64,000 bases of DNA from Candidatus Aldehydirespirator sp. GTDB taxonomy: Bacteria > Actinomycetota > Acidimicrobiia > Acidimicrobiales > Aldehydirespiratoraceae. The stretch is from positions 26,666 to 90,665 of the forward strand of contig CBDCSK010000014.1 of NCBI GenBank assembly GCA_965221605.1, read 5' to 3'. This document shows positions 10,323-63,695 of the stretch, in pieces; the first letter of the stretch is position 1, and each line of letters opens with the position of its first letter. The notes under the pieces were generated by a model, which did not search any database, was not told the DNA's origin, and worked only from the letters and a program-made list of their open reading frames with translations. Made by a program: the position numbers and the translations under genes.

Positions 10323-10340
10323 CGAAACTCCCTGTCGCAC

Positions 10341-10367
10341 CGCCTGCTGATCGCAACGTAGCAGGCG
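10341..10367 (-). promoter_or_regulatory. GC-rich hairpin between the ATPase stop and the mod start
   Basis: CGCCTGCT (10341-10348) and AGCAGGCG (10360-10367) form a perfect 8-bp stem with an 11-nt loop. There is no U-tract. It lies 19 nt upstream of the mod ATG. Confidence 0.3.
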
Positions 10368-10403
10368 GCTGAGACAAGACCGGGAACCCTCAACGGGAGG
10401 GGG

Positions 10404-18787: not shown

Positions 18788-19009
18788 GTGACCGACATTC
18801 TCATTCGTGACGTTCCCGACGACGTGGTCGCGGCTATCGAGGCCAACGCCAGGAAGGCCGGCCTGTCGAGAGCCGAGTACCTGCGGAGGACGCTTGAGCG
18901 GGAACGCGCCGACCCTGCCGGCGAAGTGACCGTGGAGTCTCTCCGGCGCTTCAAAGAGACCTTCGCAGACCTGGCTGACCCCGACGTGATGCGGTCGGCC
19001 TGGTCATGA
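18788..19009 (+). CDS. vapB: VapB-type (RHH, FitA-like) antitoxin
   Basis: [34 protein letters not shown] is a typical RHH antitoxin N-terminus. There is a 4-bp ATGA overlap with vapC. Confidence 0.8.
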
Positions 19010-19422
19010 CCGCCTGGCTGATCGACAAATCAGCCCTGGTACGGCTCGACTCGAGTCCCGACGCCGCGGAGTGGGCATCGAGAATCCAACGCGGGCTGGT
19101 CCGTATCTCCACGGTTACCCGGCTGGAGACCGGGTTCTCGGCCCGCTCAGCCGAGGACCTCCGGCGCAGCTTCGCCGGACCGCCGCTCAGCGCCATGCCC
19201 GTCGAGTACCTCACCCCCGCCATAGAGGACCGTGCGCTCACGGTGCAACTTGCCTTGGCGCAGGTGGGCCACCACCGAGCGCCCTCGGTCCCCGATCTTC
19301 TGATCGCCGCGACCGCCGAAGGCGCTGGGCTGACCGTCCTGCACTTTGACAAGGACTTCCGACTCATTGCCGACGTCACCGGCCAGCCGCTAGAGCGTCT
19401 GGTCGTCCCCGACGATCCGTAA
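19006..19422 (+). CDS. vapC: VapC-type PIN-domain toxin
   Basis: PIN acidic residues in LIDKSAL, ...TRLE..., [10 protein letters not shown] and HFDKDF. Confidence 0.85.
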
Positions 19423-26818: not shown

Positions 26819-27088
26819 ATGGAAACGAAGCTGGTGAAGGTCGGCAACTCGAAGGGCGTCCGCCTGCCCAAAGCGCTGTTGGAGGAAGCCGGGCTCGACG
26901 ACTTGGTGACGCTTCGGATCGTCGAGGGTGGCCTGCTCGTCGAGCCGCGGTCGGCCGTTAGAACCGGCTGGTCCGAGGCCGCACGGTCGGGCAGCGAACG
27001 AGGCGACGACACGGACGGCGATCTGTGGCCGCAGACGCGATTCGACGACGCTGAATGGGAATGGGAGCGGCCAGGGGCTGAAGCGTGA
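26819..27088 (+). CDS. mazE: AbrB/MazE/SpoVT-family antitoxin
   Basis: KLVKVGNSKGVRLPKALLEEAGL swapped-hairpin motif and an acidic tail. GTGA overlap with mazF. Confidence 0.85.
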   Translation: METKLVKVGNSKGVRLPKALLEEAGLDDLVTLRIVEGGLLVEPRSAVRTGWSEAARSGSERGDDTDGDLWPQTRFDDAEWEWERPGAEA

Positions 27089-27411
27089 CGACACCGGCAC
27101 GCGGCGAGGTGCACCTGTGCGTGCTGGATCCGACCATCGGTACGGAGATCCGCAAGACCCGGCCCGTGCTGGTGGTGTCCCCCGACGAGTTGAACGAGCA
27201 TTGGCGCAGCTGCCTGGTCGCACCGATGACCACCGGAAGCCACCCCTACCCGTTCCGGGTCTCATGCACCTTCGACGGAACCAACGGCCACATCGTCGTC
27301 GATCAGATCCGCGCCGTCGACAAGACTCGGCTGATTCGACATCTCGGGCGCCTCTCGCCGTCAACGATGACGCAGGTCCTGGCAGTGGCCCGCGAGATGT
27401 TCGCAGAGTGA
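27085..27411 (+). CDS. mazF: MazF/PemK-family toxin
   Basis: ARGEVHLCVLDPTIGTEIRKTRPVLVVSPDE signature. Confidence 0.85.
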   Translation: MTTPARGEVHLCVLDPTIGTEIRKTRPVLVVSPDELNEHWRSCLVAPMTTGSHPYPFRVSCTFDGTNGHIVVDQIRAVDKTRLIRHLGRLSPSTMTQVLAVAREMFAE

Positions 27412-28849: not shown

Positions 28850-29044
28850 GTGAGCAAGCACCTTGTAGACATCGACGAAGAGGCCCTCCATGCGGCCCGC
28901 GCAGAACTGGGGACTGACACAATCAAAGCAACAGTCAATGCTGCGCTCCGGGCCGCGGGCTCTCCTCGGGCCCCGCGGGTGGCCGCTGCCCTCGACCTGC
29001 TGGCCGACGCCGAACTGGCCGACCGTGAGAACGCATGGCGCTGA
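28850..29044 (+). CDS. vapB: VapB-family antitoxin (short, 64 aa)
   Basis: VSKHLVDIDEEALHAARAELGTDTIKATVNAALR matches the mycobacterial-type 'type II antitoxin VapB' N-terminus. It overlaps vapC by 10 nt. The upstream part of ORF 28622..29044 has no protein-like composition. Confidence 0.7.
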   Translation: MSKHLVDIDEEALHAARAELGTDTIKATVNAALRAAGSPRAPRVAAALDLLADAELADRENAWR

Positions 29045-29448
29045 CTCACCTGCTCGACACCAGCGTGCTGACTCGCCTCGCGCGACCCTCCATAAGGGCG
29101 GCAGTAGAGCCGCTCGCCGCTGAAGGCCGCGCCGCCCGGGCGGGGATCACCGACCTGGAGATCGGATTCTCGGCCCGGAACGCCGACGAGTGGGACAGGC
29201 TCGCCAGCAGCCTGTCGGAACTGCAACTGGTTGAGACCACCTCCGAACACCTGCGTCGGGCGCGCCAGACCCAGCGCATGCTGGCCGGGCAGGGTCTCCA
29301 GGGGCGCAAGATCCCCGACCTGCTGATCGCGGCTGCCGCTGAGCAGGAGCAACTCACTCTGCTGCACTACGACGCCGACTTCGATTTCATCGCCGCAGCA
29401 ACCGGCCAGAAGTGCGAGTGGATCGTGCCACGAGGATCCGTGGACTAG
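29035..29448 (+). CDS. vapC: VapC-type PIN-domain toxin
   Basis: LLDTSVL, ...TDLEIG..., PDLLIAAAAE and HYDADFD. Confidence 0.85.
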   Translation: MALTHLLDTSVLTRLARPSIRAAVEPLAAEGRAARAGITDLEIGFSARNADEWDRLASSLSELQLVETTSEHLRRARQTQRMLAGQGLQGRKIPDLLIAAAAEQEQLTLLHYDADFDFIAAATGQKCEWIVPRGSVD

Positions 29449-34533: not shown

Positions 34534-35932
34534 TCAGCCCAGCAGGAAGTTGAGCTCCGAGAAGTCCAGGAAGGTGAACCCGTCGGGAGCCGTCATCTGC
34601 CCGCCCGCGATGGTGACCATCAACGGAGAGGTGTTGCAGGCACCGAGCCACGGATCCGGGCCCGGGCAACTCAAATCGGGGAAGCCGGGAACATCGCTGC
34701 TGGAGTAGGTGCTGAGCGCGGCCAGCACAGACTCGGTGGTTGCGTCGGCGCCGCCGCCTGCGATGAGCAGGTCCCTGGCGATGACCGCTTGACCCAGCGC
34801 CCAGCCGCCGAGGCCGGCAGCCTGCACGCCCGCGCCGCCGTAGGTGTCCAGCACACGGTTGATCTCGTCGATCTCCGCGCCCCCGTCGACCGTGGGAGCG
34901 CTCGACACGATCGGGCCGGCCCAGCCGTCCAGCTCGCCCGACTCGACAAGATCCTGGCTCAGGCACAGATCGTTGCCGAAGAGGTGGCCCTCGTATCCGA
35001 CCGTCTCCACGCCATTGGCAGCCGCGGTGCACTGAGCGCCGTCGGCCAGGACGAACAGCCAGCCCTCGTTGCCGGTGTCGGCCGCGGACACCGGCCCGGT
35101 CAGGTCAGGCTCGAACCCCAGATAGATGGTCTCGGTGATCGTGATCCCGTTGCTCTCGCCGATGGCGTACAGCGCCGGTTCGAACGGTGCGATGGCCGGG
35201 TCGTCGGCCAGGAACAGCGACATGGTGGAGACATCGCGCTGATTCTTGGCGAACACGAAGAAGACCTGGGCCAGGCCGGGCAGACCGGGATCGAAGTTGT
35301 AGAGGTTGGGGGTGAGGTAGTCGATGAAGTCGTTGCCCAGTCCGAGGTTCGCCTTGCCGGCCTCGGCCAGGATGGTGCCCGACGCGATGCTGTTGGACAG
35401 GAAGCCGCTGTTGATGACCACGTGGATGTCGTCGGCGTTCACGAACTCGTTGGCGCAGGCAATGTGGGACTCCACCGCGTCGCCCGCACCGCAGACCTCC
35501 AACTCGATGGGGTGCCCGTTCACGCCGCCCAGCTCGGCGTTGAAGTAGTCGACGTAGGCCTGTACCACCGCGGGCACCTCGGGGAACGCCATGAGCTCCT
35601 CGACCTGGGCGATCAGCCCGATCTTGACCGGCTCCATCGACTCGTCGGCCATCATGGAATCGGACTCCTCCATGGGCTCCTCGGCCGGCTCCTCCCATGG
35701 GCTCCTCAGCGGGCTCCTCCATAGGCTCCTCCATGGACTCCTCGGCCGGCTCCTCCATGGGCTCCTCAGCGGGCTCCTCCATGGGCTCCTCGGCCGGTTC
35801 CTCCGCAGGCGCCGCCGGTGCAGGCTCATCCACGGCAGGAGCGTCATCCTCGTCGTCGCCGCAGGCCGCGGCGACGAGGGCGAAAGCAAGCAGGACTGCA
35901 GCCAGCACCCTCCAGCTGGACTTGGGACTCAT
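34534..35932 (-). pseudogene. Liv-type amino-acid-binding lipoprotein, frameshifted as sequenced
   Basis: AAGGAGG precedes ATG 35930-35932. The signal peptide and lipobox (MSPKSSWRVLAAVLLAFALVAAAC) and the acidic repeats are in one frame. The mature binding domain (ORF 34534..35889) is in another. The frames switch at ATGGGAGGAG, which is CCC 34694+1000 on the plus strand (35694-35696), where the other repeat copies read ATGGAGGAG. Confidence 0.8.
35665..35803 (-). repeat. In-gene tandem repeats encoding an acidic (E-E-P-A/M) linker
   Basis: Encodes EEPAEEPMEEPAEEPMEEPAEESMEEPMEEPAEEPM(E)EPAEEPMEE. The DNA shows near-identical 24-bp units (GAGGAGCCCATGGAGGAGCCCGCT...). Confidence 0.85.
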
Positions 35933-37091: not shown

Positions 37092-37934
37092 TTAGGGCAG
37101 CACGCCTCCGTCGATGGGGATCAGGGCGCCGTTGATGTAGGCGGCGGCCGGTGACGCCAGGAACACCACCAGCTGGGCCACCTCATCGGCGGTGCCCCAC
37201 CGGCCCAGCGGCACCTCCGAGACCAGCATCTCGCCGGCCTCGTCGTCCGTGACGCCGGCCAGGTCGGCGACCAGCCTGCGGTTGGCCACCGCCATCTGGG
37301 TGTCGATAGGACCGGGGCACACCCCCACGCAGCGGATCCCGTCGCGGCCGTGCTCCTTGGCGATGAGCTTGGTCATGGCAACCAGACCGAACTTGGTGAC
37401 GTTGTAGGCCCCGTACCCGGGATCGGACACCAGTCCTCCGATCGACACGTTGTTGACGATCACGCCCGGCCGGCCTCGATCATCGGGCCCAGCGCCAGCA
37501 GCGCCATCCGCCGAGAGCCCATGACGTTCACCTGCCACGACAGGTTCCACTGCTGCTCGGTCTGGTCGACGAAACGGCCCACCCCGGTAGTGGCGCCGGC
37601 GTTGTTGAACAGGATGTCGAGCGACCCCAGATCCTGGAGCGTGCGCTCGACCACCGACTCGGCCTGAGCCTGGTCGGTGACGTCCAGCGGGGCCGCGAAG
37701 CTCCTGGCTCCGTACTGGTCGCGCAGCTCCGCGGCCAGCGCCTCCAGCGCGGCCAGATCGTCGCCCCAAGCCGTGGGTGGGATCCTGGCGCAGCTCGGGC
37801 CGGTCGCGGGCCAGGTCGGTGACGACCACGTCGGCGCCGGCCTCGGCCAGCCGCCGCGCGGTCGCCTCGCCCATCCCCCCGGCTCGGCCCGCGCCGGTGA
37901 CCAGCGCCACCTGACCAGCCAGCGCTCCCGTCAC
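37092..37934 (-). pseudogene. SDR-family oxidoreductase with two compensating frameshifts
   Basis: The N-terminus (GQVALVTGAGRAGGMG) and C-terminus (GVIVNNVSIGG...YGAYNVTKFG) are in the frame of ORF 37092..37934, but its middle ~100 aa is Arg/Gly junk. The real middle (AWGDDLAALEAL...DVTDQAQAESVVERTLQDLGSLDILFNNAGATTG...MIEAGRA) is in the frame of ORF 37460..37654. Confidence 0.75.
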
Positions 37935-38892: not shown

Positions 38893-40008
38893 ATGCGGCA
38901 GATCCTGGACCCGGCGGGAAAACTCGTGGGACCGGTCCCTGATCTCGACGACGGCCAGCTGGTCGACATGTTCCGCATGCTGCTCACCACCCGGATGGCC
39001 GACGAGAAGCTCCTCAACCTCCAGCGGCAGGGACGCATGCCGGCCTACTACCAGGTGAGCGGCCAGGAAGGCCCACGTAGGAGCGGCGCTGGCGCTGCGG
39101 GAGACGGACTGGCTCTTCACCGCATACCGCGAGCTGGGCATGTGGCTGGCCCGGGGCATGAGCCCCATCGCCGCGCTCGGGCTGTGGATGGGCGTGCCCG
39201 ACGATGACGACCTCTGGGACGTCAACCGCTACCGGGTGACCAAGCTCAACGCCACTATCGGCACCCATCTGCCCCACGCGGTGGGCTTCGGATACGCCGA
39301 GCGCCTTCGGGAGCGCGACACCGTGGCCATGGTGGTGTTCGGCGACGGCGCCACCTCGGAGTCCGACTTCCACGCAGCCATGAACTTCGCCGGAGTGTGG
39401 AAGACCCCCACGGTGTTCCTGTGCCAGAACAACCAGGTGGCCCAGTCGACCACCATCGACAAGCAGACCGCAGCGGCCACCCTGGCCGCCAAAGCCGACG
39501 GCTACGGGTTCACCGGCGTGCGCGTCGACGGCATGGACCCGCTGGCCATGTACCACACCGCCCGCGAGGCGGTAGAGCGGGCCGCAGCCGGCGACGGCCC
39601 GACCCTCATCGAGATGCTCACGTACCGGTTCGCACCCCATTCCACCTACGACGGGACCCCGGTGTACCGCACCACCGACGAGGAGGCCCGGTGGCGCGAG
39701 CAGGATCCCATCACCCGGATGAGGTCCTTCCTGGTGAACAAGGGGACTGTGGGAGGCCGACCAGGAAGACGACATGCGGGCCGGGATCTCAGCCGAGCTC
39801 GAGGCCTTCGTCGACCAGCTGGAGGGCAGGGCCGGAGTGTCGCGCGACTACTCGCCCCGGCAGCTGTTCGCCCGGGCTCCGGCCTCTCTCGCCGAGCAGT
39901 TGCACCGTGAGCAGCACGACGCCGGCGAGCCCGTCACCACGCTGGGCCCTCAGGAGGCTTGGGCGGTCGAGCCCGACCCGTCACCCACCGGCGAGACCCG
40001 CCGGCTAG
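38893..40008 (+). pseudogene. 2-oxoacid (pyruvate/branched-chain) dehydrogenase E1 alpha subunit, at least two frameshifts as sequenced
   Basis: Frame 1 reads MRQILDP...YYQVSGQEG. Frame 2 reads AHVGAALALRETDWLF...GDGATSESDFHAAMNFAGVWKTPTVFLCQNN (TPP motif)...FLVNKG. Frame 3 reads LWEADQEDDMRAGISAELE... The switches are at GG 39070-39071 (the conserved GQEA motif reads GQEG+1) and GGGG 39742-39745. The 3' end is uncertain. Confidence 0.75.
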
Positions 40009-40010
40009 AC

Positions 40011-40973
40011 ATGACCGAGGCCCTCAAGCTGACACTGCACTCGGCCTTCGAGCGGGACCGGTCGCTGGTGATCCTGGGCGAGGACGTGGGCGTGGAGGGC
40101 GGGGTGTTCCGCATCACCGAGGGAATGCTCGAGCGCTTCGGCGCGGACCGGGTGATCGACACCCCCCTGTGCGAGACCGGCATCATGGGCACCGCGGTGG
40201 GGATGGCGATGGCCGGGCTGAGGCCGATCGCCGAGATCGAGTTCGCGGGCTTCGTCTACCCCGCCTTCGACCAGCTCATCGGCCATGTGGCCCGTATCCG
40301 GTGGCGCTACCGGGGCCATCTGACCGCGCCGGTGGTGGCCCGGTTGCCGGTGGGCACCAACCTCGACAACCTCGAGTTCCACACCGACTCCCCCGAGTCG
40401 TTCCTCACCCACGCGCCCGGGCTGGTGGTGGTGTACCCCTCCAACCCCTACGACGCCAAGGGCCTGATGGAGTCGGCCCTGTGCAGCGAGGATCCGGTGG
40501 TGTTCCTGGAGCCCATCTCGCTGTACCGCGGCCTGAAGCAGGACGTCCCCGTCGAGCCCTACCGGATCGGCTTCGGGCGGGCCAGCGTGGCGCGCGACGG
40601 AACCGACGTGACGGTGGTGTCGTGGGGACCGCCGGTGCGCGAGGCGCTGAAGGCGGCTGAGGCCCTGGCCGCGGAGGGGGTGTCGGCCGAGGTGGTCGAC
40701 CTGCGGACCCTGTATCCATGGGATCGAGAGACGGTGCTGGCCAGCGTGGAGAGGACGGGACGGCTGGTGGTGGCCCATGAGGCCCACACCACCAGCGGGT
40801 TCGGGGCCGAGATCCTGGCCGCGGTCAGCGAGCTGGGCCTCTACTCGCTGGAAGCGCCGCCGGTGAGGGTGGCCCACATGGACGTGTTCTGGGGTCCCAC
40901 GCAGCTGGAGCGCTACTCCATGATCACCGCCGACCGCATCGCCGCCGGCGTACGCCGCGCCCTCGCGGGCTGA
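40011..40973 (+). CDS. 2-oxoacid dehydrogenase E1 beta subunit
   Basis: MTEALKLTLHSAFERDRSLVILGEDVG...RVIDTPLCETGIMGTAVGMAMAGLRPI... In the sequence as given, this frame is open upstream into the E1 alpha C-terminus. Confidence 0.85.
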   Translation: MTEALKLTLHSAFERDRSLVILGEDVGVEGGVFRITEGMLERFGADRVIDTPLCETGIMGTAVGMAMAGLRPIAEIEFAGFVYPAFDQLIGHVARIRWRYRGHLTAPVVARLPVGTNLDNLEFHTDSPESFLTHAPGLVVVYPSNPYDAKGLMESALCSEDPVVFLEPISLYRGLKQDVPVEPYRIGFGRASVARDGTDVTVVSWGPPVREALKAAEALAAEGVSAEVVDLRTLYPWDRETVLASVERTGRLVVAHEAHTTSGFGAEILAAVSELGLYSLEAPPVRVAHMDVFWGPTQLERYSMITADRIAAGVRRALAG

Positions 40974-40974
40974 T

Positions 40975-42150
40975 ATGGCCAGCGTCTTCAAGCTCCCTTC
41001 CGTGGGCGACACCATGGTCGAGGGCGAGATCGTGGAGTGGCTGGTAGCCGTCGGCGACACCGTGGAGCTCGACCAGCCCATCTGCTCGGTCGAGACCGAC
41101 AAGTCGGTGGTGGAGATGACCACCCCCTACCGGGGAACGGTTCTGGCACTCGGAGGTGAGCCCGGCGACGTCATCGAAGTGGGCGAGACCCTCATCGTGG
41201 TCGGCGAGCCCGGGGAGGAGGTCCCCACCGAGGACGAACCGGTCCCCACGGCCGGAGCCGCCGGTTCCGCTGGAACTCCGCCCCCGGTACCGGCCCCGGC
41301 GCCCACGCCGCCCCAACCAGCCGCTCCGGGCTCGGTCAAGGCGGTGCCGAAGGCCCGCAAGCTGGCCAGGGAGTTGGGCATCGACCTGGCCGCCGTGGCC
41401 GGTACCGGATCGGGCGGCTCCATCACCGTCGCCGACGTCGAAGCCGCAGCCGCCCTAGCCCCGGCCGCAGGTGGTAGCCGGCGCGAGCGCCTGTCGGCCA
41501 TCCGGCGCTCCATCGCCCGCCACATGACCGAATCGATGCAGATCCCGCAGTTCACGTCGATGGTGGACGTGGACGCCAGCGGTCTGCTGGAGACCCGGGC
41601 CGCCGCGTCCGCTGCGACCGGCTCACGGGTGCCCCTCGATGCCCTGCTGGCGGCCAGGCTGGTGCCGGTGCTGCGAGACCATCCCGTGATGAACGCCCGC
41701 CTCGACGGTGAGGAGATCGAGTACTTCGACCGCTACGACATCGGCGTGGCCGTCGACACCCCCGACGGGTTGGTGGTGCCGGTGGTGCGGGGCGCCGATA
41801 CCCACTCGCTGCCGGAGCTGTCAGCCGAGGTCCTGCGGCTGGCTGCCGCGGCCCGCGACCGCACCGTGGCCCCCAACGAGCTCACCGGGCCGACCGCCAC
41901 CGTCAACAACGTGGGCGCGGTCGGGCTGCTGGCCGGCACACCGATGCTGCCGGTCGGAACCAGCATGATCGCCGCATTCGGCATGGCCCGCCCGGTGGTG
42001 CGTCTGCGGGACGGCGCCGCGGTGGAGGTCCCGACCATGACGGTGTCGGCCACGTTCGACCACCGCATCATCGACGGCGGCGCCAGCGGCCGGTTCCTGG
42101 CCCAACTCAAGCAGGCGATTGAGCGGACGACCTCCACCGAAGTGAGCTGA
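40975..42150 (+). CDS. Dihydrolipoamide acyltransferase (E2)
   Basis: Lipoyl domain (SVETDKSVVEM), Pro/Ala linker, subunit-binding domain (AVPKARKLARELGIDL) and the catalytic DHRIIDG. Confidence 0.9.
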   Translation: MASVFKLPSVGDTMVEGEIVEWLVAVGDTVELDQPICSVETDKSVVEMTTPYRGTVLALGGEPGDVIEVGETLIVVGEPGEEVPTEDEPVPTAGAAGSAGTPPPVPAPAPTPPQPAAPGSVKAVPKARKLARELGIDLAAVAGTGSGGSITVADVEAAAALAPAAGGSRRERLSAIRRSIARHMTESMQIPQFTSMVDVDASGLLETRAAASAATGSRVPLDALLAARLVPVLRDHPVMNARLDGEEIEYFDRYDIGVAVDTPDGLVVPVVRGADTHSLPELSAEVLRLAAAARDRTVAPNELTGPTATVNNVGAVGLLAGTPMLPVGTSMIAAFGMARPVVRLRDGAAVEVPTMTVSATFDHRIIDGGASGRFLAQLKQAIERTTSTEVS

Positions 42151-42298
42151 TCGCCGAACCCGGAATCGGGACCACCACGGTGTGCACCCAGAAGGCTCCG
42201 GGACTCTCAGGGCAAAGTAAGGGAAATCCCCGGTTGGGGAGGGTCGGGCCGGTCGTAGAGTCCCGCCTGAGCCTTCCCGCCAGCGCTTAGGAGAACCT

Positions 42299-43048
42299 GT
42301 GACTTCCTCCCCCACCCAGGCCGTGGCCACCGCCGCCCGGGCCGTGGCCGCCTCCAAGATCTACGGCTCCGGCGACACCGAGGTGCGGGCCCTCGACGCC
42401 ATCGACGTGGGCTTCGAGCAGGGCCGCTTCACCGCCATCATGGGACCCTCGGGATCCGGCAAGTCCACCCTGATGCACTGCATGGCCGGGCTCGACAGCG
42501 TCACCTCCGGCCAGGTGATCATCGGCGACACCGACCTCACCACGCTGTCGGAGAAGGACCTCACGCTGCTGCGCCGAGACAACGTGGGCTTCGTGTTCCA
42601 GGCCTACAACCTGGTGCCCACCCTCACCGCCATCGAGAACATCACCCTGCCGATGGACCTCGCCGGCTCCAAGGGTGACACCGCCTGGGTCGACGAGGTG
42701 GTGGGCGCCACCGGGCTCGCCGACCGCACCAAGCACCGCCCCAACGAGCTGTCGGGAGGCCAGCAGCAGCGGGTGGCGGTGGCCCGGGCCCTGGCCGGCA
42801 GGCCCCAGATCATCTTCGCCGACGAGCCCACCGGCAACGTCGACTCCAACACCGCGGCCGAGATCCTCGGCTTCATGCGCAGCGCGGTCGACCAGATGGG
42901 CCAGACCATCGTGATGGTCACCCACGACCCGGTGGCCGCCTCCTACGCCGACCGGGTCGTGTTCCTGGTGGACGGCAAGATCGTGGACGAACTGGAGGAT
43001 CCCACACCCCAGGGCATCCGGGACCACATGACCCGGCTCGGCGCCTAG
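42299..43048 (+). CDS. MacB/LolD-type ABC transporter ATP-binding protein
   Basis: GPSGSGKSTL, LSGGQQQRVAVARAL, FADEPTGNVD. GTG start. Confidence 0.9.
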   Translation: MTSSPTQAVATAARAVAASKIYGSGDTEVRALDAIDVGFEQGRFTAIMGPSGSGKSTLMHCMAGLDSVTSGQVIIGDTDLTTLSEKDLTLLRRDNVGFVFQAYNLVPTLTAIENITLPMDLAGSKGDTAWVDEVVGATGLADRTKHRPNELSGGQQQRVAVARALAGRPQIIFADEPTGNVDSNTAAEILGFMRSAVDQMGQTIVMVTHDPVAASYADRVVFLVDGKIVDELEDPTPQGIRDHMTRLGA

Positions 43049-43051
43049 CCG

Positions 43052-43075
43052 CCCCCCCCCCCCCCCCCCCCCCCC
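43052..43075 (+). repeat. Perfect C24 homopolymer in the ATPase-permease intergenic spacer
   Basis: I counted 24 consecutive C directly. This is cross-checked by the antisense ORF translations: a run of 7 Gly codons plus flanking partial codons accounts for exactly 24 G. Confidence 0.95.
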
Positions 43076-43124
43076 GGCCCGCCACCCGGCCCCACCCTCC
43101 AACACTCCCGAAGAGGATCCCGAC

Positions 43125-45701
43125 ATGTTTCGTCTGGCCCTGAAGTCGCTGCTCGCCCACAAGCTCCGCTTCGCGTTCACTGCGTTGGCGATCGTCCTGG
43201 GCGTGGCCTTCGTGGTGTCGGCGTTCGTGACGGCCGACTCGCTGCGCTCCACGTTCGACGACCTCGCTGCCGACATCAACACCGGCACCGACTTCACCGT
43301 GCGGGGGGCCCTGCCCTTCGGCGACATCACCCAGGCGAGTCCTCCGCCGGTGGACGACAGCCTGCTCGACGACGTCCGGGCCGTGTCGGGAGTGCAGTCG
43401 GCCGAGGGCGGGTTCTTCGTCGACGGTGTGATTCCCGTGGACGGATCCGGGGAGTCCCCGACCACGCTGGGAGGACCCAGAGCCGGCACCAACTGGACCG
43501 CAGACCCGACGCTGTCGCAGTTCTTCCTGATCGACGGCGAATGGCCGCGGGGACCGACGCAGTTCGCCATCGACGTCGTGACCTTCGCCGACTACGACTT
43601 CGAGCTGGGCCGCGACTACCAGGTGGTCACGCCCATCGGGCCCCGCACCTTCACCCTCACCGGCACCATGCAGTTCGGCTTTCCCGAGAACGCCGGGATC
43701 GGCGCGGTGTTCTCCGTGTTCGACACCCCCACCGCCCAGCAGGTCCTCGGCATGGAGGGCAAGTTCAACGAGATCGCGGTGCGGGCCGAGCCGGCCGCCG
43801 ACATCTCGCAGGTTCAGGACCGGATCACGGCGGTGCTGCCGGCGGGAACCGAGGTCATCACGTCCGAGGAGGCGGCCGAAGAGTTCGGCGACGCCTTCGA
43901 GAGCTTCATCGGACCGTTCCAGACGATCCTTCTGGTGTTCGCCTTCATCGTGCTGTTCGTGAGCGCGTTCATCATCTCCAACACCTTCAACATCGTCCTC
44001 GGCCAGCGGGTGCGGGAGCTGTCGCTCCTGCGGGCGCTGGGAGCCACTCCCCGCCAGGTGCGCCGCACGGTGCTGATCGAGTCGCTGGTGATCGGCGCCA
44101 CGGCCGCGTCAGCAGGCATCGGGCTCGGGATGCTCGGAGCGATCGGGCTCGAGGCGCTGCTGTCCGCGTTCGGCGCGTCCCTGCCCGACGGGCCTCTGCC
44201 GCTGCGGGCACGCACCGTGGCTTGGGCGTTCGCGGTGGGCGTCGGCTTCACGGTGGTGGCCTCGCTGGTGCCGGCCGCGAAGGCGTCGCGGATCTCGCCG
44301 GTGGCCGGGCTCGGCGAGCAGAGCGGCGACGACGGCGGGCACGGCCGCTTGTGGCGGGTGATCGCGGGCGCCGGTCTCGCCGCTATGGGACTGATCCTGA
44401 TCGGCCGGGGGCTGTTCGCCGACTTCGACTCCACCACCGCGCAGCTGTTGTCGCTGGGAATAGGGGCGGCGGTGGTGTTCGTGGCGGTGGCGGTGCTCAG
44501 CCCGCTCATCGCCGGGCCGACCGTGGCCACCCTGGCCCGCCCGTTGCCATGGATCCTCCGCACACCTGGCCGGCTGGCCCGCGACAACGCAGCCCGCAGC
44601 CCCCGGCGGACTGCGGCCACCGCGGTGGCTCTGACCATCGGCCTTGCCCTGGTGGCCATGGTGCTGGTGGTGGGCCAGTCCCTCAAAGACACCTTCAGCG
44701 AAAGCCTGAGCGACGCGGTGGCAGCCGACTATGTGATCAGCACCGACACGTTCTCCGGGGTGCCCGAGACTCTGGCCGCCGACCTGCGGAGCGCCGGAGC
44801 GGCTGCGGCGGTCCCCCTCGACGAGTACCCCGCGCAGGTCCTCAGCCCGGTCGCTCCGGGACGCATCGACGACGCCGAACTGACGGTCACCGACCTCGAC
44901 GCCATCGACGAGGTCGCCAACCTGGGCGTGATCGACGGCACCCTCGAGGGTCTCGATCCGATGTCGGCACTGCTGGTCGCCAGCGACACCGCCGACGACT
45001 GGGGCCTGGAGGTCGGGGATCAGGTGAGTGTCAATCTGACCAGTGGCGAGACCCTGGCCGTGACGGTCGGCGCCGTGTTCGACCAGACCCGGCCGCCCTT
45101 CTGGGACGAGTGGATCATCGACGAGTCGCTCCACAAGCTGACGGCGGGCGCCGACCGATTCGACCAATGGGTGGCCGTCAACGTCGAAGGGGACGATCCG
45201 GCGGCGTCTCGGGCCCTGCTCGACGAGGTGCTCAGCGCGTACCCGCAGGCGACGCTGGAGGACCGTCAAGAGTTCCAGGCGTCGCTCGAGTCGAACCTCA
45301 ACACGTTGCTGGCCCTGGTGAACGTGTTCCTGCTGTTCGCGCTCGTGGTGGCTCTGGTCGGCATCGTGAACACCCTGACGTTGTCGGTGTTCGAGCGCAC
45401 CCGAGAGATCGGGCTGCTGAGGGCGGTCGGCATGACCCGGCGCCAGCTGCGCCGGGCGATCCGCTGGGAGGCCGCCGCCATCTCGCTCTACGGCGCCCTG
45501 GTCGGGGTCGTGCTGGGACTGGGCTTCGGGGTGGCCCTGTCGGTGGCTATCCCCGACGACGCCATCGACCGGGTCTCGGTGCCCGTCGGTCAGATCCTCG
45601 GCCTGGTGGTGGTGACCGTGGCCTTCGGGCTGCTGGCGGCGGTGTTCCCGTCGTACCGGGCGGGCCGCATGAACGTCCTAGAAGCGATAGCGGCGGACTG
45701 A
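43125..45701 (+). CDS. FtsX/MacB-type ABC transporter permease with two FtsX domains (858 aa)
   Basis: N-terminal TM (LRFAFTALAIVLGVAFVV), two four-TM FtsX bundles (...REIGLLRAVGMTRRQL...) and large extracytoplasmic domains. Confidence 0.85.
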   Translation: MFRLALKSLLAHKLRFAFTALAIVLGVAFVVSAFVTADSLRSTFDDLAADINTGTDFTVRGALPFGDITQASPPPVDDSLLDDVRAVSGVQSAEGGFFVDGVIPVDGSGESPTTLGGPRAGTNWTADPTLSQFFLIDGEWPRGPTQFAIDVVTFADYDFELGRDYQVVTPIGPRTFTLTGTMQFGFPENAGIGAVFSVFDTPTAQQVLGMEGKFNEIAVRAEPAADISQVQDRITAVLPAGTEVITSEEAAEEFGDAFESFIGPFQTILLVFAFIVLFVSAFIISNTFNIVLGQRVRELSLLRALGATPRQVRRTVLIESLVIGATAASAGIGLGMLGAIGLEALLSAFGASLPDGPLPLRARTVAWAFAVGVGFTVVASLVPAAKASRISPVAGLGEQSGDDGGHGRLWRVIAGAGLAAMGLILIGRGLFADFDSTTAQLLSLGIGAAVVFVAVAVLSPLIAGPTVATLARPLPWILRTPGRLARDNAARSPRRTAATAVALTIGLALVAMVLVVGQSLKDTFSESLSDAVAADYVISTDTFSGVPETLAADLRSAGAAAAVPLDEYPAQVLSPVAPGRIDDAELTVTDLDAIDEVANLGVIDGTLEGLDPMSALLVASDTADDWGLEVGDQVSVNLTSGETLAVTVGAVFDQTRPPFWDEWIIDESLHKLTAGADRFDQWVAVNVEGDDPAASRALLDEVLSAYPQATLEDRQEFQASLESNLNTLLALVNVFLLFALVVALVGIVNTLTLSVFERTREIGLLRAVGMTRRQLRRAIRWEAAAISLYGALVGVVLGLGFGVALSVAIPDDAIDRVSVPVGQILGLVVVTVAFGLLAAVFPSYRAGRMNVLEAIAAD

Positions 45702-45723: not shown

Positions 45724-48306
45724 ATGTTCAAGCTCGCCCTCCGCAGCCTGATCGACAAGAAGCTGCGCTTCGCGCTGACCACCCTCGTGGTGGTCATCGG
45801 CGTGATGTTCGTGGTGGGCTCGTTCACGCTCACCGACAGCCTGCGGTCCACGTTCGCGGGGCTTGCCCGGGACATCGCCCAGGGCGCCGACCTGACGGTG
45901 CGGGCAGACCAGTCCTTCGGCGGCGACTTCGACCGGGCAGCGGTGCCGGAGGCGGTGGGCGAGCAGGTGTTGGGCGTCGAGGGAGTCGACCGGATCCAGC
46001 CTGAGCTGGGCACCCTGAACGTGTTCATCATCGACGGCGAGGGCAACCCGATCAGGCCTCCGGGCCCACCGGCGCTGGGCTTCAGCTTCAACCCGGGCAC
46101 GTTCTTCATCACCGAGGGCAGGCAGCCCGCCGAGCCCGGCGAGTTCGCAACCGACACCTCGACCGCGGCCGACAACGGGCTGCTCGTCGGCGAGACCTAC
46201 GAGATCAACGGCCCCATCTCCGCCGAGCCCTTCGTGCTGGTCGGCGTGTTCAACTTCGGGGCCCCCGACTCCCACACCGGCCTGGGCCAGACCATGGCCG
46301 CCTTCGAGCTCGACGAGGCCCAGCGCTTCTTCGGCATGGAGGACGGCTACCAGGCGATCAGTGTGCTGGTGTCGCCCGGCTCCGAGGTGTCCGAGGTGCA
46401 GGACCGGCTGGAAGCCGAACTGGGCGACGACTACCGCGTGATCACTCAGGAGGTGGACGCGGCCGAGCAGGAGGAGGACTTCAACCAGGTCGTCGACATC
46501 TTCAACACGATCCTGCTGGTGTTCGCGTTCATCGCGGTGTTCGTGGCCGCCTTCATCATCAACAACACGTTCCAGATCATCGTGGGCCAGCGGGTGCGAG
46601 AGATCGGGCTGTGGCGGGCCATCGGAGCGACACCGAGGCAGGTGAGCCGGTCGGTGATCACCGAGTCGGCCATCGTGGGCGTCGTCGCCACGGTCATCGG
46701 GATCGGCCTCGGCCTCGTGCTGGCCCTCGTGCTGCGGGCCATCCTCGACCTGATCGGCTTCCCGCTCCCACCGGGACCACTGACGCTGCAGCCTCGCACC
46801 GTCGGGCTGGCGATGCTCGTGGGCCTGGGCGTGACGATGATCTCCTCGATCGCACCCGCGCTCAGGGCCCGCAAGATCTCCCCGGTGGCCGCTCTGGCCC
46901 ACGACTTCCAGTTGGACCCCACGAGCCTGCGACGTCGCCTGATCGCGGGCGGGGCGGTGTTCGCGGCCGGCGTGGTCGCGCTGGCCGCCGGCATGACGGC
47001 CGGGCTGGACACCACCGCCACCTTCGTTCTGCTGGGGATCGGAGCCGTACTCGCCTTCATCGGCATCAACACCGTAAGCCCGGCCTTCGCCCGGCCGGCG
47101 GCGTCGGCGCTGGGTCGCCCGGTGAAGTCGCTGTTCGGCATGCCGGGCCGCTTGGGCCGCGACAACGCCGCCCGGAACCCCCGGCGGACTGCCTCGACCG
47201 CCGGTGCGCTCCTGATCGGCCTCGCTCTGATGGGGCTGGCCGCGGTGGTCGGCGAGTCCGTCAAGAAGACGTTCGTCAACATCATCGAGAACGCGGTGGA
47301 GGCCGACTACTTCATCCGGTCGGCCGAGACCGGCTTCGGCCCCCCGCCCGGCTTCCCGGCCCGGCTGGCCGACGACATCGAGGCGCTGGACGAGATCGAG
47401 AGCGTGATGCGGATCCAGTTCTCCTTCGGCGGGCTGAGCGTCGACGGGGAGCCCCGGGACATCGTGGCCGCCGACATGGCCCTGGCCGACGACCACTTCG
47501 ACGGCCGGGTGAGCTCGGGCGACATGGCCGCCGGCGATCCGCTCACCGCTCTGGCCCTGCACAGCGACTCGGCCGCGAGCCTGGGTGTCGGCGTGGGCGA
47601 CACCCTCGAAGCCACCTTTCCCGACAACCAGACCGAGACCCTCACCGTGGTGGCCATCTACGAGGACGCCGCCATCTACGGCAACTGGCTGATCGACGGC
47701 GCCCTGTGGGACCGCCACTTCAACCGCAACGACCTCGCCTTCGCCAGCGCCCGCATCGCCGGTCTCGACAGCGCGGCCGACGAGTTCGAGCAGGCCGCGC
47801 TGCAGGATCGCAGCCGGGCAGCCATCGAGGGCGTGCTCGACCGCTATCCCACCGTGAAGGTCGAGAACCAGGCCGAGTTCCGCCAGGCCCAGGAGTCCCA
47901 GCTCACGGCGTTGATCAGGGTGATCCAGGTTCTCATAGGCCTGTCGTTCGTCATCGCGCTGATCGGCATCATCAACACGTTGAGCCTGTCGGTGTTCGAG
48001 CGCATCCACGAGATCGGTCTGCTGCGCTCGGTGGGCATGACCCGGAAGCAGCTGCGGCGCTCGATCTACTGCGAGGCGCTGATCGTGGCCGTATTCGGCG
48101 GGCTGCTCGGGGTGACGGTGGGCACCGTGTTCGGCGTGGCGACCACGCTGGCGCTGCCGGAGTCGTTCGTGCAGACGGTGGCGGTGCCGTGGCTGGACCT
48201 CGTGGTCTTCGTGGCCATCTCGGCGGTCGCGGGCCTGCTGGCCGCCATCCTCCCCGCGGTGCGGGCCGGTCGCATGAACATCCTCGACGCCATCGCCCAC
48301 GAGTAG
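45724..48306 (+). CDS. FtsX/MacB-type ABC transporter permease, paralog of the previous gene (860 aa)
   Basis: Same architecture and collinear motifs (MFKLALRSLIDKKLRF..., ...HEIGLLRSVGMTRKQL...). Confidence 0.85.
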   Translation: MFKLALRSLIDKKLRFALTTLVVVIGVMFVVGSFTLTDSLRSTFAGLARDIAQGADLTVRADQSFGGDFDRAAVPEAVGEQVLGVEGVDRIQPELGTLNVFIIDGEGNPIRPPGPPALGFSFNPGTFFITEGRQPAEPGEFATDTSTAADNGLLVGETYEINGPISAEPFVLVGVFNFGAPDSHTGLGQTMAAFELDEAQRFFGMEDGYQAISVLVSPGSEVSEVQDRLEAELGDDYRVITQEVDAAEQEEDFNQVVDIFNTILLVFAFIAVFVAAFIINNTFQIIVGQRVREIGLWRAIGATPRQVSRSVITESAIVGVVATVIGIGLGLVLALVLRAILDLIGFPLPPGPLTLQPRTVGLAMLVGLGVTMISSIAPALRARKISPVAALAHDFQLDPTSLRRRLIAGGAVFAAGVVALAAGMTAGLDTTATFVLLGIGAVLAFIGINTVSPAFARPAASALGRPVKSLFGMPGRLGRDNAARNPRRTASTAGALLIGLALMGLAAVVGESVKKTFVNIIENAVEADYFIRSAETGFGPPPGFPARLADDIEALDEIESVMRIQFSFGGLSVDGEPRDIVAADMALADDHFDGRVSSGDMAAGDPLTALALHSDSAASLGVGVGDTLEATFPDNQTETLTVVAIYEDAAIYGNWLIDGALWDRHFNRNDLAFASARIAGLDSAADEFEQAALQDRSRAAIEGVLDRYPTVKVENQAEFRQAQESQLTALIRVIQVLIGLSFVIALIGIINTLSLSVFERIHEIGLLRSVGMTRKQLRRSIYCEALIVAVFGGLLGVTVGTVFGVATTLALPESFVQTVAVPWLDLVVFVAISAVAGLLAAILPAVRAGRMNILDAIAHE

Positions 48307-51077: not shown

Positions 51078-51175
51078 CCCGGGCCTCCTCCGGTCAACGG
51101 TGATTGGCTGGGGCGGCCGCGAGGGCTGCTCCGAGGCCCCCGGCCGAGCGTGCTGGCTCGGCTCGGCGGCTGGTT

Positions 51176-51209
51176 ACATTCAGCGGCTAGTCACATTCGG
51201 CGACTAGTC
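51176..51209. repeat. Tandem 17-bp direct repeat in the divergent intergenic region
   Basis: ACATTCAGCGGCTAGTC / ACATTCGGCGACTAGTC (2 mismatches), inside a visibly A/T-richer 370-bp spacer. Confidence 0.8.
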
Positions 51210-51449: not shown

Positions 51450-52985
51450 GTGGATACGGTGCTGAGGATGGATGAAGTCGAAGTTGGTCACCCGTGGGAG
51501 CCGATCACAGCCTTGACTGACGACGACCGCGCCGCAGCCAGCGAAGAACTGCCTGCGCTTGCTCGGACATGGAACCAGGTCCGTGCCACGCTTGATCGCC
51601 AGCAGGTAGACAACTTCAATGAACTCCTGAAGCGGCAGTGGGCGATCGAGACCGGGATCATTGAGCGCCTCTACACGCTCGACCGAGGTACGACAGAGGT
51701 TCTCATCAAGCACGGCATAGACGCATCTTTGATCGCGAGCGATGCCACGGATCAGCCACCCGAACTAGTCGCTGGGATCATCCGGGATCATGCCGAGGCG
51801 GTCGACTGGCTGTTCGACGCGGTAACCAGCGAGCGTCCTCTGTCCACCTCCTTCATGAAGCAACTGCACCAGTTCATGACGCGCAAGCAGGTCTATACGA
51901 CCGGTATCGACATGTTCGGCAGAAAGCACGAGATTGAGTTGAGGCACGGCGAGTTCAAGGCCCGTCCCAACAATCCCGTGCGCCCCGACGGCAAGCTCCA
52001 CGAATACTGCCCACCTGAGCACGTAGATGCCGAGATGGACCGGCTGATCGAGATGCACCGCCAACACACGGAGGCGGACACAGCCCCCGACGTGAGCGCG
52101 GCGTGGCTCCATCACCGTTTCGCACAGATCCATCCCTTCCAAGACGGCAACGGGCGGATCGCTAGAGCCATCGCGTCGCTAGTGCTCATCGGAGCCGGGT
52201 GGTTCCCCCTAGTCGTTACCCGTGACGATCGGGCCAGGTACATCAGCGCTCTCGAGCAAGCGGACGATGACGACCTGATTCCACTGATACACCTCGTAGC
52301 GGAACTCCAGCGAAAGTGGTTCGTTCGCGCTGTCTCGATCGCCGAGGACGTACGGCGAGAGTCACTCCACTTGGAGCAGATGCTCGATGTCATCGGCGAA
52401 ATGTTCGGTGCGGAGTCAGCGCCGGCTCAGTCGGAGTTGCGCCAAGCCCTTGAGACGGCCGAGCAGGTGTGGATCCAAGCCCGCAACCGCTTCGACGAGT
52501 TGCGGGAGCAGTTGGAGCAGCGCTTGGGGTTCTCCAACGGAAGGCGCGTGTGGTGCGACTACGGAACGGACGACGACGCACGGCGGCGCACATGGAATCG
52601 ATATCAGGTAGTCGAGACTGCCCGCAGTCTCGACTACTACGCCAACACACGAGTCCACCACGAATGGGTTCGCTTGGGAATTCAGACTGAGCACGGCCGT
52701 TCCGAGATACTGACCTCGTTCCACGGGATCGGAACGGAGTATCGGGGACTTGTCGGCGTGTCGATGTGCTTCTACCGGCGCCAACAACCCGAGGCCACTG
52801 AGGACCACCCTGAGGGCGCGGCTGATATGACTCTCCAGCAGCAGATCATCGAGTTGCAGCCTGTGTCGGAAGATGTCTTCCAAATCAACTACGAGGAGCC
52901 CTTAGAGTCTGTGGAACGACGGTTCCACGGATGGCTGGAACGTGCTGTCGTTCTAGCTCTCGACCAGTGGCGCCGAGGCGAGTGA
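51450..52985 (+). CDS. Fic-domain protein (canonical AMPylation motif) with a ~230-aa uncharacterized C-terminal region
   Basis: HPFQDGNGRIARAI matches HxFx(D/E)GNGRxxR exactly. The start is uncertain (GTG 51450 or ATG 51468). Confidence 0.8.
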   Translation: MDTVLRMDEVEVGHPWEPITALTDDDRAAASEELPALARTWNQVRATLDRQQVDNFNELLKRQWAIETGIIERLYTLDRGTTEVLIKHGIDASLIASDATDQPPELVAGIIRDHAEAVDWLFDAVTSERPLSTSFMKQLHQFMTRKQVYTTGIDMFGRKHEIELRHGEFKARPNNPVRPDGKLHEYCPPEHVDAEMDRLIEMHRQHTEADTAPDVSAAWLHHRFAQIHPFQDGNGRIARAIASLVLIGAGWFPLVVTRDDRARYISALEQADDDDLIPLIHLVAELQRKWFVRAVSIAEDVRRESLHLEQMLDVIGEMFGAESAPAQSELRQALETAEQVWIQARNRFDELREQLEQRLGFSNGRRVWCDYGTDDDARRRTWNRYQVVETARSLDYYANTRVHHEWVRLGIQTEHGRSEILTSFHGIGTEYRGLVGVSMCFYRRQQPEATEDHPEGAADMTLQQQIIELQPVSEDVFQINYEEPLESVERRFHGWLERAVVLALDQWRRGE

Positions 52986-52997
52986 GCGAACCCGCGA

Positions 52998-57632
<4,635 letters not shown>

Positions 57633-61088: not shown

Positions 61089-63695
61089 GTGTCCGTAGCG
61101 GGATGGCGGCTGCTTCACCTCCTCGTTCTAGCCACTCTGGCCTTCACCCAGCCACTTCTGAGCGTGCTCGGCGAGAACCCGACCTTCTTCGTCGCGCACT
61201 CGACGTCACCCGGCCATTTGATCGCCTTTGTGCTAATCGTCTCCCTCGTCCCGGCAGCCGTGCTCGGCACCCTGATGCTCGCTGGCCATGCCGTCTCGGC
61301 CGGGTTGGGAGAACGCATCTTCTGTGTCTCGATGACCGTGCTGGCCTTCGTCTTCATCCTTCAGGTGGTGGACACGATGCCCGGACCGCCGGTGGCCGTC
61401 GCGGTCGTGGCCGGCGCCGTCAGCTACGGCCTGATGATCCTGTACTCGACGCAGCGACCGGTGCGATCGGCGGTGTCGGTGATGGCCGTGTTCCCATTGG
61501 CCGTTGTGGCCCTGTTCCTGTTCCGTTCACCGGCCAGCAGCATCGCGTTTCCCGACGATGTCGAGGCGGTGGCCCTCGATGACCTGCTGGGAGCGGACTT
61601 CGCCACGGGGAACCTCGACAGCAAGAACCCGTCACCAGCCGGCACCGCCAACAGCAATGACGCAGGCGCCGGCTCCCCGGCCACCACACCCACCCAGCGG
61701 GCGCCCACGGCAACCGGGCCCGCGGCTGTCCCGGGAGCTGAAGCACAGCCGGCCTCGATGGTCGATCGCCTGAACGAGCGATTCCCGCCGATCTACGTCC
61801 TTGTGCTCGATGAGTTCCCGTGGGCCTCGCTACTCGACGAGGGCGGACGGATCGACAGGGTTCGCTATCCGAGTTTTGCTCGGCTCGGCGCGACAGCCCA
61901 CGTCTTCTCCAACGCCACCACGGTGGCATTCACCACCGAGCAGGCAGTGCCCGCCCTGTTGACGGGCACGCTCGAAGCTCAACCCGCCCCGGTGTACTCG
62001 CTGTACCCCGACAACCTGTTCACGCTGCTGGGTGGGGTGTACGACGTGACGGTGTCAGATCCTCTAGTCGACTTGTGCCCGCCGCCGGTGTGCGATGGCT
62101 CGCCTCCAGTGCAGATCCTCGAACTGATTGCAGCCGACGAGGCGACACGCTCCGCCCAACCGGCAGCCACAACCACCCCCACCACGACCGCCTCGACAAC
62201 GACCACAACCACCCCCACCACGACCGCCTCCCAGGTGACGGTGCCGGCCGCAAGCGAGGCCAGGAGCGGGCGGGGCGGATCACTGTCGCGGTTGCTGAAG
62301 GACGCCGCCATCGTGCTCGCGCATCTCGCGGTTCCCGAAGGAGTGGACTTCGGACTCCCATCCATCGGTTCTACGTGGGGCAACTTCGGACTGGAACCGG
62401 TCGCCCGGGACCTCACCGTGGAGGCTTCCCAGCACGGCACCTCAGCCGCGCCCGAAGCCTCCCCTCCCACAACCGCCGCAGCCACACCGGCAAGCACGAC
62501 CGCAGCCACCACCACAACCTCCTCCACCACCACCACGACCGCAGCCACCACCCCAGCACCGCCTGCGGAGGATCCCCTGGCAGAGCTGCTGACAGGATCG
62601 GGATCGGGATCAGAAGCGGCCTCTGATCCGGTCGACCCGCAGCGCCTCGCGCAGGAGCGCACGGCCTTCCTCGACAGCCTGATCACCATCGACACGCGGG
62701 TCGCCGACCTTCGGGCCGCGGTCGCGGCCCTGACAGAGAGCGAACTGCCCCGCCTTCACTACCTCCACGCCCTGCTGCCCCACGTGCCCTGGCGATTCAG
62801 GCCCGACGGCTCGACCTACGCGGACATCGAGCTTCCCGGGTACTTCTCCAAATGGGACGACGACCCAGCCATCGCCCACTTCGGGCAGCAGCGGCACCTG
62901 CTGCAACTCGGCTTGGTCGACCGCTTGCTGGGGGAGTACCTCGACCGGCTGGAGGCAATCGGCGACTTCGATCGGGCCATTGTCATCGTGACCGCCGACC
63001 ACGGAATCTCCTTCGTGCCCGGCGAGCGATCCCGCGGGATCGGCGAGGCCAACACGGCGGGAATCGCCAACGTGCCGTTGCTCTACAAGGAACCGGGCCA
63101 ACGATCAGGCACGGTCCAACCCCAGCCCGTGGAACTCATCGACGTCGTCCCGACCCTCGCGGCCAAGCTCGGACTGGATCCGCCGTGGGCATTCGACGGC
63201 CACAACCTCTTCGCGGTGGCGGACCCGACCCGGGATCGCCGGGTGCGGGGCCCCTACGGCATGGTCGACGTTCCCGGCGACCTAGGCGCCATCGTGGATG
63301 CGCGTGCCGCCAGCATGCACGGCGTCTTTGGCGACGGCACCTCGGGCAGCCTCTACGGACTCGGCGGCGCCCACGACCTGATCGGCACGCCGACGCTTGA
63401 CCGGACGATCAGCCCATCCGAGCACTGTTGGACCCTGGAACGACCGCTCACGACCCCAGAGGCCAGCGGTGCGGTCGGATTCGTGTACGGGCGGATCAAC
63501 GTCACCGCCGGTGCGGGGATTGCGGTGGCTGTCTCGGTCGACGGAGTGGTTGCAGGGACGGCCCGGTCCTACCGGGACGGGTCGATCGAGCGTGTCTACG
63601 CCATCGGTGATCCGCAGTACTGGAAGACCAGCGAGCCTCTGGTGGAACTCCACGAGATCGTGGAAGGACGGCTCGCACCCATCGGCCGCTGTTGA
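61089..63695 (+). CDS. Membrane-anchored sulfatase/alkaline-phosphatase-superfamily protein with Thr/Pro-rich inserts
   Basis: About 5 N-terminal TM segments, then IYVLVLDEF...TTEQAVPALLTG...IVIVTADHGISF (metal/nucleophile motifs of the superfamily). GTG start. Confidence 0.65.
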   Translation: MSVAGWRLLHLLVLATLAFTQPLLSVLGENPTFFVAHSTSPGHLIAFVLIVSLVPAAVLGTLMLAGHAVSAGLGERIFCVSMTVLAFVFILQVVDTMPGPPVAVAVVAGAVSYGLMILYSTQRPVRSAVSVMAVFPLAVVALFLFRSPASSIAFPDDVEAVALDDLLGADFATGNLDSKNPSPAGTANSNDAGAGSPATTPTQRAPTATGPAAVPGAEAQPASMVDRLNERFPPIYVLVLDEFPWASLLDEGGRIDRVRYPSFARLGATAHVFSNATTVAFTTEQAVPALLTGTLEAQPAPVYSLYPDNLFTLLGGVYDVTVSDPLVDLCPPPVCDGSPPVQILELIAADEATRSAQPAATTTPTTTASTTTTTTPTTTASQVTVPAASEARSGRGGSLSRLLKDAAIVLAHLAVPEGVDFGLPSIGSTWGNFGLEPVARDLTVEASQHGTSAAPEASPPTTAAATPASTTAATTTTSSTTTTTAATTPAPPAEDPLAELLTGSGSGSEAASDPVDPQRLAQERTAFLDSLITIDTRVADLRAAVAALTESELPRLHYLHALLPHVPWRFRPDGSTYADIELPGYFSKWDDDPAIAHFGQQRHLLQLGLVDRLLGEYLDRLEAIGDFDRAIVIVTADHGISFVPGERSRGIGEANTAGIANVPLLYKEPGQRSGTVQPQPVELIDVVPTLAAKLGLDPPWAFDGHNLFAVADPTRDRRVRGPYGMVDVPGDLGAIVDARAASMHGVFGDGTSGSLYGLGGAHDLIGTPTLDRTISPSEHCWTLERPLTTPEASGAVGFVYGRINVTAGAGIAVAVSVDGVVAGTARSYRDGSIERVYAIGDPQYWKTSEPLVELHEIVEGRLAPIGRC
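62167..62230 (+). repeat. Perfect 28-bp direct repeat (36-bp period) encoding TTTPTTTAS
   Basis: CCACAACCACCCCCACCACGACCGCCTC occurs at 62167-62194 and again at 62203-62230. Confidence 0.85.

Follow-up and report, generated by a model that had tools for sequence, protein, structure and literature searches.

A singleton 24-nt poly(C) tract between the ATPase and permease genes of an ABC transporter operon in a Candidatus Aldehydirespirator genome: either a recent, unstable repeat or a fault of the assembly

The intercistronic spacer of an ABC transporter operon in Candidatus Aldehydirespirator sp. contains a perfect run of 24 C residues, and the questions raised are whether the run is present in the organism's DNA and, if so, whether it serves the operon. 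In the window (the whole 64,000-nt stretch of contig CBDCSK010000014.1 analysed here) the run occupies positions 43052–43075 of the + strand, is uninterrupted, and reads as G24 on the operon's template strand. The ATPase stop codon (TAG, 43046–43048) is followed by CCG and then by C24, so that the tract starts 3 nt past the stop, and the permease ATG at 43125 lies 49–50 nt beyond the tract. On the + strand the order is GGCGCC, TAG, CCG, C24, GGCCCGCCACCCGGCCCCACCCTCCAACACTCCC, GAAGAGGA, TCCCGAC and ATG, with GGCCCGCCACC as the sequence 3' of the C run. The permease Shine-Dalgarno sequence GAAGAGGA (43110–43117, +) stands 7 nt 5' of the ATG and is kept in close relatives; it is unaltered by the tract, and both flanking reading frames are untouched. 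The length, the coordinates and the spacing to the TAG and the ATG were all as described in the initial annotation of this DNA.

The gene upstream of the tract (42299–43048, +) encodes an intact 249-aa ABC transporter ATP-binding protein of the MacB/LolD/FtsE type (Pfam ABC_tran, 8e-32), with its stop codon at the same position as in orthologues and with matches to NCBIfam DarD, YbbA, MacB and LolD that were all under the family cut-offs. The tract is followed by two duplicated FtsX-type permease genes of the same operon, the first of 858 aa (43125–45701, +, intact) and the second of 860 aa (45724–48306, +), each encoding two MacB_PCD and two FtsX domains. The genes were placed by NCBIfam near the MacB, LolCDE, FtsEX, YbbP and ADOP families, every cut-off being missed, and with the ABC_tran, MacB_PCD and FtsX domains the earlier label of MacB-like ATPase and permease is a fair one. 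Genes for 2-oxoacid dehydrogenase E1 and E2 lie upstream of the ATPase gene. This upstream neighbourhood varies between strains, with E1/E2 in most and a ParE/Phd toxin–antitoxin pair in one (L043, 673–1187). Two paralogous operons of one ATPase and two permeases were seen in MAG CBDBEL01 (L001, L030), the permeases of the two copies having 97% and 77% aa identity to the permease of the window.

The tract was first compared with what base composition would produce. The window has 68.6% GC and 35% C, and from p(C)=0.35, p(G)=0.336 and the run-length counts of the window, about 7e-7 runs of at least 24 C or G were expected by chance in 64 kb. The other homopolymers reach at most 6 nt (C6 seven times, G6 five times), with no run of 7–23 nt, so that C24 is the only such run in the window. 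The orthologous DNA of relatives, 307 kb in all, had a homopolymer maximum of 8 nt, and over 371 kb of DNA from the lineage, C24 aside, no homopolymer exceeded 8 nt. In exceeding the length expected from base composition (24 against a maximum of 6) C24 resembles phase-variable simple-sequence repeats. The proposal that such a run does not arise by chance was thereby upheld, as was the concern over slippage, since a run this long would be expected to change in length during replication.

Orthologous loci were collected in two ways. With the permease as query, species-representative genomes yielded 32 true orthologous loci, all in Acidimicrobiia MAGs, many of them Candidatus Aldehydirespirator, many sponge-derived, and complete long-read chromosomes included; protein searches and contig look-ups added 13 locus records, partly overlapping, for a total of 45. 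A tract was found at the orthologous site in 0 of the 45, the closest relative (95–98.7% nt identity) included. Comparison of orthologous loci had been proposed in the initial annotation as a check on the tract, and it came out against conservation: because no orthologous locus carries the tract, a conserved regulatory role for C24 is excluded.

The sequence that stands in place of the tract was read from the same loci. The closest relative (L042/L044, an ENA scaffold) reads TAGCCG GACACCTT CGGCCC at the site, and in all close relatives a GACACCTT-like sequence forms the tip of a small hairpin just past the stop codon, about a dozen of them having GCCGGA-NNNN-TYCGGC, a 6-bp hairpin. A remnant of this hairpin can be aligned in the window at 43048–43078 (+), where the stem GCCG (43048–43051)/CGGC (43075–43078) is kept and the relatives' apical GA-CACC-TT (inner GA, 4-nt loop, TT) gives way to the C run. 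Thus 8 nt are swapped for 23 C (23–24 C in place), a net gain of 15 nt, and the spacer measures 76 nt in the window versus 60–61 nt in close relatives. The flanks equal those of the orthologues base for base, on the left up to GCCG and on the right from CGGCCCGCC, and on the side of the first permease no gap was found against the nearest relative across 4 kb. As aligned, the change is a replacement rather than a simple expansion of an existing run, and pure slippage does not account for it because the GA and TT that flank the loop are gone. At exactly the site of the tract the loop of one relative (L005) is CCCC, a possible seed. Loss to the tract of a functional, conserved hairpin was also considered and is treated as weak: among relatives 92% of cells of the hairpin are able to pair, two-sided covariation was sought there and none was found, so that its function is without statistical support, and spacer folding energies were no better than those of shuffles.

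The reading that we favour, and to which we give about even credence, is that the tract is a real, evolutionarily very young, strain-specific C:G homopolymeric repeat and not a conserved regulatory element. When the incidental and the selected forms are taken together, a real tract is somewhat favoured overall. C24 would have arisen in the C-containing tip of the small hairpin just past the ATPase stop, and replication slippage would then go on changing its length. Since the run is prone to slippage, tract length probably differs within the population, and 24 would be only a nominal figure.

The strongest rival, which we regard as a substantial though lesser possibility, is that the organism's DNA has an ordinary 61-nt spacer and that the C run is a sequencing or assembly error, introduced by a faulty backbone read left unpolished (low local long-read coverage), a mis-closed gap or a similar consensus error. 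It is consistent with a tract that is a singleton among the orthologous loci, that replaces 8 heterogeneous bases instead of extending an existing run, and that lies in a GC-rich, structure-prone site; bacterial homopolymers longer than 10 nt are moreover rare (PMC9262707). The independent assembly of the closest relative also broke within the same spacer. In that short-read scaffold a 100-N gap lies inside the ATPase–permease spacer (L042, 2863–2962; same scaffold as L044), bordered on both sides by CGGCCCCCACCC, and the spacer is therefore hard to assemble.

Further evidence for this rival came from four ±1 homopolymer frameshifts located 3–6 kb upstream of the tract, in short C, G or A runs of two genes. 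The SDR gene (37092–37934, –) has indels at 37465 (C4 to C3) and 37764 (C3 to C4), which leave about 100 codons out of frame, the NNAG motif included. The gene for a fused E1 alpha-beta 2-oxoacid dehydrogenase (38893–40973, +) has gained one A or G at 39069/70, and its G3 has become G4 at 39742–5. Both genes are intact in L044 and L045, where the fused E1 has 692 aa. In the two genes 67/99 and 45/58 substitutions (68–78%) fall on the third base of codons read in the original frame, and on account of this bias old pseudogenes were rejected as the explanation and the frameshifts are either consensus errors or extremely recent. They look like consensus errors in this comparison, and if so the homopolymer calls of the assembly are unreliable there. 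Long-read assemblies are known to be marked by homopolymer indels that frameshift genes (PMC9262707). The problem is local and the assembly not poor overall, since some 50 further genes of the window have their full length.

Against an artefact, no known consensus error of Illumina, HiFi or nanopore data puts a perfect 24-nt run between colinear flanks, long-read errors mostly shorten homopolymers and seldom create them, and the full-length genes of the window count on the same side, as do the intact ATPase and permease genes and the intact Shine-Dalgarno sequence beside the tract. No strain switch was found at the tract: L042/L044 is the nearest relative on both sides (97.6% left, 97.3% right), and for this reason the idea that two strains had been joined there into a chimera was rejected. 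If the assembly is from long reads, the length of a real run would be unreliable and its borders blurred, which softens the argument from replacement.

Two-colour Illumina poly-G calls had been named in the initial annotation as an example of how an artefact might arise, and they resemble the tract in giving a long one-strand G run in a metagenome-derived assembly. Such poly-G tails are terminal and degenerate, standing at the ends of reads or contigs and decaying to mixed sequence, unlike C24, which is perfect, sharply bounded, internal to a 689,646-bp contig and held between colinear flanks. They cannot give an internal bounded run because the assembly path must both enter and leave it, and this part of the suggestion fits poorly, whereas another consensus or assembly artefact is kept as a serious rival in view of the nearby frameshifts.

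Public records were searched for a second copy of the locus. The proteins of the window are on record on that one 689,646-bp contig only, and exact-protein look-ups of the ATPase and permease returned no record in other assemblies. A scan of JGI metagenomes for either spacer allele (flanks plus a gap of 8–38 nt) gave 0 matches, and a second one, in which at least 12 C had to come after the conserved ATPase 3' end, gave 2 matches, both unrelated and due to chance; one of the two (L047) is a typical contig-end poly-C artefact with a degenerate run.

Predicted RNA and DNA properties of the tract were then considered. Tuning of an internal promoter, one of the roles first suggested, was not borne out, as no promoter-like site was found in 42000–44000 and no TANNNT between C24 and the permease ATG. 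Rfam covariance models gave 0 matches in the window at gathering score, and in 42900–43250 only a chance match (E=1). In the RNA of the spacer the tract is predicted to be wholly unpaired in both the MFE and the centroid structures (z-score –0.39).

A second suggested role, that of a poly(C) RNA element bound by a protein, is best made concrete as a candidate loading site for Rho. Poly(C) is the best RNA cofactor for Rho ATPase, that of M. tuberculosis included (PMC4167861). What defines Rut sites is a bias of C>G together with low structure (PMC13650167). The tract resembles Rut sites in that about 76 nt of untranslated spacer RNA has C far in excess of G and is predicted to be unstructured; the skew of C over G extends over some 70–80 nt (C56/G12) with little predicted structure, and the RNA of the tract falls in the gap from one gene's stop codon to the following start codon, where by rut criteria it would not be covered by ribosomes. 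It differs from natural rut sites, which are heterogeneous C-rich sequences, in being a homopolymer, and it has a good Shine-Dalgarno sequence 35 nt downstream of C24, because of which ribosomes may shield the spacer RNA. The window itself contains no gene for Rho.

A roadblock formed by a G-quadruplex on the template strand, also among the suggested roles, is plausible from the sequence. G24 allows the arrangement 5-1-5-1-5-1-5, and adjoining it at 43078–43097 (–) is a G-quadruplex-type motif read as GGG-T-GGGG-CC-GGG-TGGC-GGG (GGGTGGGGCCGGGTGGCGGG, minus strand), which is ancestral and present in close relatives. With the gquad model of ViennaRNA both G24 and GGGTGGGGCCGGGTGGCGGG were predicted to form G-quadruplexes, and the motif was predicted in the L001-type spacer too. 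G-quadruplex motifs on the template strand act as obstacles to transcription or replication in bacteria, as known from E. coli reporter studies and the Neisseria pilE G4. The tract is like these in that G24 could form a multi-tetrad intramolecular quadruplex with a canonical G3+N1-4 motif alongside; it is unlike them in that here the structure is a prediction from sequence, and the neighbouring ancestral motif occurs without the tract in all close relatives.

If the tract is the young repeat that we favour, the mRNA would be lengthened by an untranslated stretch of about 60 nt, unstructured, very high in C and low in G, a preferred substrate for Rho loading, and the template strand would gain G24 beside the existing G-quadruplex motif. 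Rho loading and a quadruplex would act in the same way, in that transcripts of the ATPase gene would outnumber those that extend into the two permease genes (polarity), to an extent that would vary with tract length. We infer such reduced read-through into the permease genes from these predicted properties.

A further rival, which we consider unlikely, holds that the tract is under selection as a contingency locus. Such a phase-variable poly(C) would change in length reversibly and thereby switch or tune permease expression, by way of promoter spacing, Rho-dependent polarity or a G-quadruplex roadblock, and would give heritable heterogeneity of the exporter in the symbiont population. The tract is far beyond chance length and lies 50–73 nt upstream of a start codon; in a survey of Bordetella, 21–80 nt upstream were the positions likeliest to affect expression, and the products here are cell-envelope proteins, a class typically under phase variation (PMC1891110). 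The C-richness of the spacer is also conserved across the genus, so that composition may matter. Contingency loci are, however, normally shared and length-polymorphic among strains, and here a tract of any length is absent from all 45 orthologous loci, a strain at 96–98% identity among them; the variation seen among strains at the site is one of presence and absence, with a single assembly of the strain that has the run. C24 also lies outside any reading frame and any recognisable promoter, being intergenic, 3 nt past a stop codon and with no promoter-like element, and no second such tract occurs in 64 kb.

Known homopolymeric tracts give the scale for this comparison. C/G tracts occur in Bordetella at 67% GC (PMC1891110), and in M. 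avium subsp. paratuberculosis, a high-GC actinobacterium, hypervariable mononucleotide G runs reach 21 bp (PMC4415927). Like the Bordetella fim poly(C), the Campylobacter poly(G) and SSR loci 1 and 2 of M. avium subsp. paratuberculosis, C24 is a pure C:G run, and like the Bordetella and M. avium tracts it exceeds compositional expectation and stands, in a genome of high GC, in an intergenic position 5' of an envelope-protein gene (PMC1891110, PMC4415927). Presence or absence between close relatives is a further likeness to hypermutable tracts. At 24 nt it is longer than the 9–21 nt reported for the tracts of Bordetella, Campylobacter and M. avium subsp. paratuberculosis, and it is unlike them in being found at no length in related strains, in lying off any recognisable promoter or reading frame, and in having replaced unrelated sequence instead of growing from a run.

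The most specific proposal is that the tract is a newborn hypermutable poly(C) acting as a length-tunable intercistronic attenuator, by Rho loading and/or G-quadruplex formation, that sets the ATPase:permease ratio of a MacB-type exporter. We consider it very unlikely. If it were true, the tract would be a contingency locus working via polarity, and not via frame or promoter spacing, in an uncultured actinobacterial sponge symbiont.

Composition was examined over the whole spacer. Of the 76 nt of the ATPase–permease spacer (43049–43124, +), 52 are C (68%) and 11 are G (14%), and 43032–43109 has the strongest C>G skew of any 78 nt in the window on either strand. The 30 parsable orthologous spacers are all C-rich (median 51% C, 23% G), even where they cannot be aligned, and the other same-strand spacers of the window have 27–41% C, except for one 22-nt spacer at 59% C. 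A C-rich composition of the operon spacer thus seems to be maintained, with the tract exaggerating a property that the spacer already had, and the conserved C-richness may be a compositional feature that affects permease expression. In many spacers a CCCTCC-like motif was seen 20–30 nt 5' of the start codon, able to pair with the Shine-Dalgarno sequence; such anti-Shine-Dalgarno-like CCCTCC occurs in 22 of the 27 distinct spacers, as is expected because the spacers are C-rich. The second and third strongest C skews of the window (62155–62535) correspond to Thr/Pro/Ala-rich linkers (TTTPTTTASTTTTTTPTTTAS and similar) within an 868-aa membrane sulfatase-like protein (61089–63695), and are coding, not regulatory.

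Other repeats and accessory genes of the window were recorded separately. A tandem array with a period of 12/24/36 nt (CTCCTCCATGGG-like) lies at 35661–35804 in the N-terminal region of the gene for a Peripla_BP_6 solute-binding protein (34534–35889, –) and is about 90 nt longer than in L045. A 17-nt tandem repeat, GCGGCTAGTCACATTCA (51166–51209, 2.6 copies), is intergenic and precedes the gene for a Fic-domain protein (51450–52985; PADLOC SoFic/PDC-S04-like), which is followed by a 1544-aa Lhr-type helicase gene (52998–57632). The region 6064–12095 (–) holds a complete type III restriction-modification pair (Res, 6064–8589; Mod, 8589–10340), beside which stands an AAA_14/DUF4143 ATPase (10404–12095, –; PADLOC candidate PDC-S01); the mod gene (8589–10340) showed no repeat tract. 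The lower GC at 6–12 kb (0.59–0.65) suggests that this region is an acquired defence island. Two PIN-domain toxin genes and a pair of small overlapping genes, probably toxin–antitoxin, were noted at 19006–19422, 29035–29448 and 26819–27411.

The tract is ordinary in kind, non-conserved and known from a single assembly, and is to be read as an unstable repeat of recent origin or else as an error of assembly. If it is an artefact, it is a quality flag for this MAG, alongside the four nearby homopolymer frameshifts. If it is real, few C:G homopolymers seen in bacteria of high GC would be as long, and it would offer a natural test of the effects on expression of poly(C) RNA, through Rho loading, and of template G runs within an operon in an unculturable lineage. 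The more general lead is the C-rich composition of the ATPase–permease spacer, which is conserved across the genus.
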